18,668 bases of DNA. It comes from Candidatus Thorarchaeota archaeon. Lineage in GTDB: Archaea; Asgardarchaeota; Thorarchaeia; Thorarchaeales; Thorarchaeaceae. The position numbers were made by a program, and so were the translations under genes. Of this stretch, positions 16,838-18,668 are shown one piece after another. Each line of letters begins with the position of its first letter. The first letter of the stretch is position 1. The notes below the pieces were generated by a model. The model worked only from the letters and a program-made list of their open reading frames with translations. It was not told the origin of the DNA and did no database searches. The stretch covers positions 1-18,668 of the forward strand of contig JBHLRP010000059.1 of NCBI GenBank assembly GCA_048882485.1. The letters are read 5' to 3'.

Positions 16838-16947
16838 GATGAAGAATGAGGGAGCATGAAGCTCTCTCTATGAGTTTGAAACTACATCTGTTTCTCTTGT
16901 CTGTACGGCAGACAGTCAGGTCCGAATATATCGCGTGACATGACGAT
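16838..16947 (-). repeat. Anchor-3'-end repeat, copy B (intact frame plus hairpin flank)
   Basis: 16882-16947 reads IVMSRDIFGPDCLPYRQEKQM*; abuts and overlaps the M32 stop by 1 nt; hairpin at 16848-16868. Confidence 0.92.
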
Positions 16948-18479
16948 TAAGAATAGAGAACCGAGTACTTGTGTGTCAGATATTTGATATACGGCTTTGC
17001 AGAGAGGCCCTTTCCAGTGACATGATTCATGAGTTCAGGTAAATCATAGAGTCTGCCCACAAGATAGATTCTCCCTCTCATCCAATCAAGAATCTTTGAG
17101 ATGTCACCTGAAGCCAATTTCAATCTCCATTCTGGAAAGTCCTTCTCCATTGCTTCAATGATTTGGGCGGAAATTACATTCCCAAGCGAGTATGTCGGGA
17201 AATGTCCAAACATGCCTATGGCCCAATGTGGATCTTGTAGTGCACCCTCCCCGTCATTCTTCACCTCAACCCCCAAGTACTTCTGATAGAGTTCATTCCA
17301 TACTGAAGGAATCTCACTAGCATCAATCTCTTCTGCAAAAAGGCTTCTCTCTATCTCGAATCGGATGGCGATATGCATGTTATAGGTGAGTTCGTCTGCA
17401 TACACTCTCAGAGGTTGAAGCTGAACTGGATTCACTGCCTTTGTGAAATCTGCGACACTAATATTCTCAAAGAGGCCATTTGCCATATTGTTCAAAATGG
17501 GGAGGAAGTATTCCCAGAACTCAAGAGACCTGCCAATTATGTTCTCAATGAGCCTTGCCTGTGATTCTGTTACAGCGCTACCTGCATGGTAGCCTACAGG
17601 TTCGTATTTCCATTCTGTATTGAGATGCCTGTTGTAGAGGGCATGTCCACTCTCATGAAGAAATGACATAATGGATGTCTGGAATCTATTTTCTTCATAT
17701 TTCACTAGGATTCTCACATCATCATACAATCCCATTGTGAATGGATGTTCACTTTCACCGAGTATGCCGAAAGCAGACTCAGACTCAAGGTCATAACCCA
17801 CAAAATTGGCAAGGTGTCTGACAATTCTCTTTTGGAGCTCGATATCCACACTTCTATCCATGAAATCTGTTTCAACCTCTTTTGATAGAATTGCGTACTT
17901 CTTTGCCAGTGGAGATACTGAATTGACAAGCTCTTTGAGCAAGGCTGTCAGGTCGTCTGTCCTTATTCCTCTTTGATATCTATCGAGTAGCGCATCATAG
18001 AGAGTATCCAGTCCCATGCTCTCAGCGTGATAAGCTGCAATTTCCTTTTCAATCATGAACATCCCTTTGAACTCGTCCTCAAATGGACTCCATGTACCCT
18101 CCTTCTTTGCCTTCAACCTCGCATTAGATGCCATTGCAGCCTGCTTTTGGCGCTTCCTAGCAAGTTCCTCTGGCACTTTCGCGTCCTTTTCATACTCATG
18201 CCTAATGAGGAACAAGTTGCGTCGTTGTATCTGATCAAGTGTATCCAGATTCTCAGGTCTCTCAGCTTCTCGCAGCATGTGTTCTGTTTCCTCGTTCATC
18301 CAAGTGCGCTGTATTGTCGCCGCTAGACTTGCCATTTCCTCTCCACGTTGGTTGTATCCACCTCTTGGCATGTTTGATTTACTATCCCATTCAAGGATAG
18401 ATTTCAGGTTCCAAAGCATTACGGCTTCCTTCCATCCCTCGACCAGCTTATGGTAGCATGCCTGATTTGGTTGCTCCAT
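16947..18479 (-). CDS. Carboxypeptidase M32 (carboxypeptidase Taq/Pfu family)
   Basis: HPF, DVRI, HESGH (HEXXH), ESQ, LRVYADELTY, GALQDPHW, FPTYSLG; likely start ATG at 18479 (track start 18497). Confidence 0.95.
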   Translation of the reverse strand: MEQPNQACYHKLVEGWKEAVMLWNLKSILEWDSKSNMPRGGYNQRGEEMASLAATIQRTWMNEETEHMLREAERPENLDTLDQIQRRNLFLIRHEYEKDAKVPEELARKRQKQAAMASNARLKAKKEGTWSPFEDEFKGMFMIEKEIAAYHAESMGLDTLYDALLDRYQRGIRTDDLTALLKELVNSVSPLAKKYAILSKEVETDFMDRSVDIELQKRIVRHLANFVGYDLESESAFGILGESEHPFTMGLYDDVRILVKYEENRFQTSIMSFLHESGHALYNRHLNTEWKYEPVGYHAGSAVTESQARLIENIIGRSLEFWEYFLPILNNMANGLFENISVADFTKAVNPVQLQPLRVYADELTYNMHIAIRFEIERSLFAEEIDASEIPSVWNELYQKYLGVEVKNDGEGALQDPHWAIGMFGHFPTYSLGNVISAQIIEAMEKDFPEWRLKLASGDISKILDWMRGRIYLVGRLYDLPELMNHVTGKGLSAKPYIKYLTHKYSVLYS

Positions 18480-18610
18480 TTGACGAAATCCTCCCAAATT
18501 CGATGCTTATCTCCACCAGAGGATTAGGAAACATACATGACTAATCAGTCAATCGGTGGAAAGAAGGAGAAGCTTAGAGAGGGAACACCTTTCTCGATTT
18601 GAGACTAGAA

Positions 18611-18668
18611 TTACATCTGCTTCTCTTGCCTGTACGGCGGACAGTCAGGTCCGAAGATTTCCCGTGCC
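18611..18668 (-). CDS. 3' end of putative anchor gene (repeat copy A; runs off right edge)
   Basis: Reads ..AREIFGPDCPPYRQEKQM*; followed by a weak hairpin (18577-18595) and pyrimidine tract. It could be an intact gene end or another remnant. Confidence 0.6.
   Translation of the reverse strand, partial: AREIFGPDCPPYRQEKQM

Follow-up and report, generated by a model that had tools for sequence, protein, structure and literature searches.

The mORF elements of fungal mitochondria, known from atp6 of Allomyces macrogynus and from atp6, atp9, cox2 and nad3 of Glomus, place an endonuclease gene at the 3′ end of a host gene together with an in-frame foreign C-terminus, which replaces the native one (PMC3630166). 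The native end persists behind the insertion as a duplicate that is no longer translated, and divergence between the two ends is much greater at the DNA than at the protein level (PMC3630166). In rhs genes, recombination attaches new 3′ ends to a conserved gene, behind which the former ends build up (Jackson et al. 2009, PMC2935791). Integrons, including those of archaea, hold accessory-gene cassettes at one site, where the cassettes are separated by repeats of the same orientation (Ghaly et al. 2022, PMC9668308). Among the Asgard archaea, the mobile element HeimM2 of Ca. Heimdallarchaeum carries a homing-endonuclease-like gene and lies exactly behind the 16S rRNA gene (Wu et al. 2022, PMC8813620); its authors suggested that the nuclease has been co-opted for site-specific insertion (PMC8813620).

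The window analysed here is the whole of contig C59, a complete contig of 18,668 bp from a Thorarchaeota MAG (G000) of 157 contigs and 3.96 Mb. It carries copies of a repeat that is the 3′ end of an acyl-CoA dehydrogenase (ACAD) gene. As in mORF elements, relatives of G000, rather than C59 itself or the second repeat-bearing contig C92, combine an ACAD-adjacent nuclease gene with a carried in-frame C-terminus and a displaced native tail. Unlike mORF elements, the present system is archaeal and chromosomal, its nuclease gene and the host gene converge instead of being in phase, kilobases of cargo are carried in one relative (G076), and the displaced tails form arrays of at least ten cassettes, most of which have no nuclease. 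Small cassettes at a single chromosomal site, with a content that differs between relatives, recall the integrons, yet a PF00589 search of G000, G005, G020 and G024 and of the G018 and G016 arrays found no IntI-type integrase, and the array cassettes occur in both orientations, some with regulators of their own. The separators are conserved in sequence, vary with a period of three and do not covary, in contrast to attC sites, which are imperfect palindromes conserved in structure. HeimM2 is likewise an Asgard element with a homing-endonuclease-like gene behind a conserved gene, but it is single, is found at an rRNA gene and comes without described gene-end repeats or a cassette array. As in rhs loci, displaced ends downstream record past states; rhs, however, displaces variable toxin tips, whereas here the end is conserved and unrelated, variable cargo lies between its copies. 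CIME-type tandem accretion also yields repeats that are copies of the target gene's 3′ end in a single orientation, but no tyrosine or serine integrase was found in the present arrays or in the G076 insert. No description of an ACAD-tail cassette array was found in the literature searched.

The repeat and its anchor gene

The repeat is the 3′ end (encoding IVMAREIFGPDYLPYRQEKQM, then stop) of a single-copy ACAD gene together with a terminator-like hairpin. The unit comprises the last 21 codons, the stop codon, a spacer of about 15 nt, a G+C hairpin and a T-rich run; all copies have one orientation, and the left boundary is nearly fixed. In the relative G005, one copy is the genuine end of a 413-aa ORF (L026 2133-3374), the product of which matches three ACAD Pfam domains (PF02771, PF02770 and PF00441) with E = 1e-12 to 1e-32, such that the N-terminal, middle and C-terminal domains occur in one protein ending in the repeat, which makes up its last 22 codons. 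Of 23 high-quality genomes in the family, 20 contain the orthologue, as a single copy with 80-96% identity. A DNA search recovered repeat arrays from 21 of the 36 further genomes examined within this family and from none of 24 genomes of the phylum's other families. The hairpin and T-run, which look like a terminator that travels with every tail, follow the window's copies A and B (Table 1) as well as most copies in relatives, and another such hairpin of the window lies at 8206-8232. The stems vary in a compensatory manner between copies (GGGAGC/GCTCCC, GAGAGAGG/CCTCTCTC and GGGGGC/GCCCCC).

Within G000, the repeat is represented by copies A and B, by eight further and mostly degenerate copies on C59, and by three on C92. 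The similarity is well beyond chance (nhmmer E = 1e-16 for A and 1e-19 for B). A search of G000 for the ACAD orthologue found only paralogues of about 30% identity, and the anchor gene is therefore taken to be unassembled in this MAG. The end of C59 falls within copy A, so that the first three codons of this copy and the DNA upstream are missing; with ACAD unassembled, it cannot be shown that copy A has been, or is, the end of the anchor gene. No tRNA or tmRNA that might have served as a target is present within the window. Contigs of other MAGs often break at or just behind the ACAD gene as C59 does (for example in G096, G017, G029, G090, G079 and G100), and the cassette array is a systematic breakpoint in assemblies.

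Several copies comprise only the left half of the tail. Those listed in Table 1, and one on C92 (6707-6754), extend to about column 40 and include the pseudo-palindrome described below; they abut the 3′ end of a convergent cargo gene and in some cases overlap its stop codon.

Table 1. Tail copies and associated features of contig C59.
Feature	Position	Strand	Remarks
Copy A, AREIFGPDCPPYRQEKQM then stop	18611-18667	-	ACAD-type tail; last 19 codons and stop, truncated by the contig end
Imperfect G+C hairpin and T-rich run behind copy A	18576-18594	-	Terminator-like, belongs to the repeat unit
M32 (Taq-type) carboxypeptidase	16947-18497	-	Cassette gene separating A from B; its stop codon shares a base with the first base of copy B
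Copy B, IVMSRDIFGPDCLPYRQEKQM then stop	16882-16947	-	Complete, 21 codons and stop
Spacer and terminator-like hairpin behind copy B	16841-16881	-	Near-identical to the DNA behind the copy at G005:C14 17629-17694
Degenerate remnants	14767-14860	-	Right part of the tail (14838-14860), then frameshifted left half (14767-14805)
Weak left-half copy	11140-11178	-	nhmmer E = 0.037
Decayed full copy	8490-8550	-	2-nt deletion and stop codons; common to G002:C98
Left-half copy	5542-5578	-	Overlapped by the stop of a convergent TetR gene
Partial copy with pseudo-palindrome	4162-4199	-	QEIVGPDYLL, then stop
Right-part-only copy	2991-3012	-	Immediately 3′ of the stop of a co-oriented MBL-fold gene
Left-half copy (VMEQEIFGLQYL)	1534-1571	-	

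Coding-type divergence of the copies

Copies A and B differ at 8 of the 57 nucleotides that they share. As the initial annotation of the window had reported, six of these differences fall at third codon positions (CGG/CGC, GAA/GAT, ATC/ATA, AGG/AGA, AAG/AAA and TAA/TAG), five of them silent when TAA/TAG is counted and the remaining one exchanging E for D (GAA/GAT); the other two are GCA/TCA (A/S) and CCG/CTG (P/L). Taken alone, the pair (pN/pS = 0.069/0.375) has a third-position excess that is merely nominal (binomial P(>=6/8 at rate 1/3) = 0.02). Glu6 and Leu13 do not vary among 30 functional ends. Since B has Asp6 and A has Pro13, each replaces a residue that is invariant in working tails, and both look like displaced copies that have started to drift. 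That they differ mostly by silent changes nevertheless points to descent from working gene ends.

The larger set consists of 159 copies from 53 loci in about 35 genomes, collected with an nhmmer profile, 30 of which are functional ends as defined by an in-frame upstream ..GAEGG..QK. Diversity at codon positions 1, 2 and 3 is.17,.08 and.55 among the functional ends and.17,.15 and.41 among the full-length array copies (n = 66). When array copies are compared with the functional end of their own genome, 232, 140 and 579 changes fall at the three positions, and third-position changes are the most numerous in each of 15 genomes; the excess first noted in a single pair therefore persists in the larger alignment. 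Raw pN/pS is 0.11/0.66, and the signature is present in both halves of the site. Raw values are reported because the Jukes-Cantor correction of pS fails for pairs of functional ends (pS > 0.75). Relative to the consensus, full array copies carry 9.7 nucleotide changes and 3.5 amino-acid changes, where random placement gives 6.75.

Local duplication followed by random decay is rejected as the source of this pattern, in agreement with the initial annotation. Of 48 array copies, 30 resemble the functional end of another genome more closely than that of the genome in which they lie, against a mean of 0.25 and a maximum of 2 in 500 runs of a duplicate-and-decay simulation, which modelled each copy as its own functional end plus an equal number of random changes. 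The four full copies of G000 each have their nearest neighbour in G002, G020 or G033, and not in one another. A maximum-likelihood tree of 101 copies and 55 columns had too few columns for resolution, and the nearest-neighbour counts and the simulation were used instead; the tree gives 68 changes of genome label (about 82 when shuffled, 32 under per-genome monophyly), and an AU test on it did not reject a G000 clade (p = 0.29). Overall, the bias towards silent changes supports working gene ends as the source of the copies and speaks against a local duplicate in decay.

Among these species-level genomes, synonymous sites are close to saturated. In the 26-29 closest pairs, most species pairs being saturated, third-position divergence is.59 in the tail versus.41 in the gene body. 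Decay is evident in the arrays, with internal stops in 6 of the 66 full copies and with 63 other copies that are partial or carry indels. A gradient of decay away from the anchor is present in C59, G005 and G018 and absent in G013, G101 and G016.

A pseudo-palindrome within the tail

The tail holds a 22-bp pseudo-palindrome, AGATATTC-GGACCT-GACTATCT, at columns 17-38 within the codons for EIFGPDYL. It is 56% Watson-Crick paired, compared with 15-32% in slid controls. Present in all copies, it lies at 16900-16935 of the window in copy B. The common variants of the element alter third positions and thereby disrupt pairs (GC to AC, AT to AC and AT to CT/TT), and no covariation of its pairs was found. 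Structure consequently fails to explain the third-position pattern, and the covarying RNA or DNA structure that had been named at the outset as grounds for refutation is not what is seen. The pseudo-palindrome could be a candidate recognition site for a nuclease or a recombinase. A Xer/dif-like site was considered for it and dropped because G000, G005, G020 and G024 gave no PF00589 match.

Cassette reshuffling and the search for an integrase

The part of C59 that starts with copy B shares its gene order with G005:C14 (17.6-34.8 kb), the identity being 89-95%. The synteny is interrupted by cassette-sized indels bounded by tail copies, with the stretches at 8220-10598 and 3157-5427 found only in G000 and a 4.2-kb block found only in G005. 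The stretch at 8220-10598 is a hydrolase/HTH_10 module, which recurs at 92% identity in G002:C98 and G011:C105, and that at 3157-5427 an ICMT/TetR module; both are missing from the syntenic G005 stretch. A GNAT cassette has different following neighbours in G000 and G005. At these sites the two halves of the tail go with different flanks, the left with the upstream one and the right with the downstream one. Cassettes have thus been reshuffled between species. Systematic mapping of exchange junctions yielded only three usable pairs, in which two junctions lie within columns 19-41, in or next to the pseudo-palindrome, and the third after the stop codon. These junctions fit recombination within the repeat, and the three events are compatible with either homologous or site-specific exchange.

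No recognisable integrase accompanies this reshuffling. PF00589 (Phage_integrase) gave no match at E <= 0.01 in G000, G005, G020 and G024, assemblies that are 87-97% complete, while all 14 control genomes gave matches; it was also absent from the array contigs of G018 and G016, and PF00239 (Resolvase) had no match within the arrays. The XerA-type recombinase seems to be missing or very divergent in the four Thorarchaeota assemblies.

Tail replacement and the LAGLIDADG nuclease

In ten relatives, the first slot, immediately behind ACAD, is occupied by the gene for a LAGLIDADG homing endonuclease or by a remnant of it. It is a gene, or a piece of one cut by the contig end, in G024, G012, G076, G082, G061 and G014, and a remnant in G084, G027, G013 and G026; no nuclease homologues occur deeper in the arrays that were fetched. 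The gene is convergent with ACAD and begins about 100 nt behind its stop codon. The protein has 606 aa in G024 (L021 10352-12172) and 1073 aa in G076 and matches PF14528 above the cut-off. Most arrays are without a nuclease gene, including those of G005, G020 and G018, and no ACAD-linked nuclease is present on contigs C59 and C92 of G000.

An in-frame inserted C-terminus with the native one displaced downstream is found in G024, G076, G084 and G027. In G024, one and the same stretch of 21 residues is encoded three times, by the functional end and by two displaced copies. The nuclease gene lies between the functional end and the first of these copies, and 11 silent changes separate those two tails. 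The ACAD of G076 has a variant C-terminus (..QKQQMDD), and the ordinary QEKQM-stop tail is displaced behind the nuclease gene. The functional and displaced tails lie 13.6 kb apart (L076 2813-14330 plus L087 1-1612, G076:C49), and the insert between them contains the nuclease, a HerA-like ATPase, a complete type I restriction-modification system and a DprA-like gene, and it encodes no integrase. With such a content, defence genes travel in the slot. In G084, a 76-aa nuclease remnant lies between a QKQQFD tail and a truncated ordinary QEKQM-stop tail.

The initial annotation had also concluded that the C-terminus of the anchor was replaced by incoming alleles. Replacement is indeed seen in relatives, though incoming alleles are not fully separable from earlier and later forms of a single lineage's own gene end. 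Under the mORF model a displaced native tail would lie closer to the ends of relatives than the inserted tail; in G076 it does so in five of six comparisons, with margins of just 1-5 nt, and in G024 and G027 displaced and inserted tails do not differ in their distance to those ends. Of the 10 functional ends linked to a nuclease, 6 have QK-type tails, as have 4 of the 22 others (Fisher p = 0.04, with genomes that are not independent), and the QKGQFD type is scattered across six genera. The nuclease-linked tails are often of the form QK.Q.D/E, whereas nearly all array copies are of the QEKQM-stop type. Because of this mismatch, most cassettes may have entered in another way.

Origin of the array

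Copies A and B are probably displaced 3′ ends of ACAD that separate accessory-gene cassettes, with a nuclease and recombination as the presumed means of their accumulation. Thorarchaeota of this family keep a row of accessory-gene cassettes downstream of ACAD, with a tail copy at each boundary. As the copies differ mostly silently, each would descend from a tail that formerly served as a translated gene end, whether in the present lineage or in that of a donor. Incoming DNA with a tail of its own would shift the old one downstream, where it would then decay through stops, frameshifts and reduction to half copies. A putative LAGLIDADG homing endonuclease may cut the end of the ACAD gene, whereupon repair would copy in a new tail along with the nuclease gene and cargo; the nuclease gene would later be lost by deletion, and homologous recombination between tail copies would shuffle, gain and lose cassettes. 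We infer this combination of nuclease and recombination as the best available explanation, and not as a demonstrated one.

The same repeats could be read as the attachment sites of an unrecognised site-specific recombinase that acts in trans, in the manner of integrons or tandem integration, with the attP of each cassette restoring the coding end. The marked pairing of the pseudo-palindrome, the two junctions mapped in or beside it, the nearly fixed left boundary and the single orientation of the copies would all suit such an enzyme. It is nonetheless unlikely, as neither PF00589 nor PF00239 proteins turned up in the assemblies and arrays searched for each, the 13.6-kb insert of G076 lacks an integrase, the third junction lies beyond the stop codon and outside the palindrome, and half copies are common. 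Even less of a case can be made for the repeat as a structured DNA or RNA element (REP-like or a terminator) that is conserved for base pairing instead of coding. A hairpin with compensatory variants does follow most copies, and the tail does contain a pseudo-palindrome, but the variation has a period of three in the ACAD frame, third-position variants break the palindrome pairs without covarying, and the sequence ends a 413-aa ORF in 30 genomes, which together make this reading highly improbable.

A different account dispenses with incoming DNA altogether and treats the copies as local duplicates of the genome's own gene end, made at different times, after which the functional copy changed silently. 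Such snapshots of one lineage would explain why decay in C59 and G005:C14 is further advanced in distal than in proximal copies, why G000 and G005 share synteny in the distal part of the array, and why the AU test leaves a single G000 clade standing. Neutral decay, however, allows a ratio of third- to second-position changes of at most about 2, and the observed ratio is about 4:1. More than half of the compared copies resemble foreign functional ends more closely than their own, cassettes shared by G000 and G005 do not share their neighbours, the tail has diverged more than the gene body at third positions in the closest pairs, and one tail type is scattered over six genera. This account is thus quite unlikely.

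If displacement by a nuclease followed by recombination is the true mechanism, Asgard archaea would have a fixed site at which accessory and defence genes are taken up and rearranged with no integrase involved. The signature of silent changes makes a readable history out of odd repeats, in which the separators were once working ends and not the scars of one duplication, and it links a gene-collecting site on an archaeal chromosome to the strategy of fungal mitochondrial nucleases that bring their own gene end. A broader and more tentative proposal, possible though as yet short of probable, is that Thorarchaeota maintain an integrase-free platform for gene capture, in which a homing endonuclease time and again opens the end of a single housekeeping-type gene, each invasion adds a recoded tail and cargo and shifts the previous tail downstream, and recombination among the tails shuffles the cassettes. 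Such a platform would be a second and mechanistically independent integron-like solution, with its successive tails as a dated archive of the invasions.

The only homologue of the nuclease in G000 lies elsewhere, on contig C136 (1527-3611), and is a paralogue about 28-30% identical to the ACAD-linked LAGLIDADG protein. Its gene immediately precedes, in the same orientation, one for a PccB-like carboxyltransferase. Dozens of paralogues of this LAGLIDADG family occur at other Thorarchaeota loci, and each possibly has a target gene of its own.
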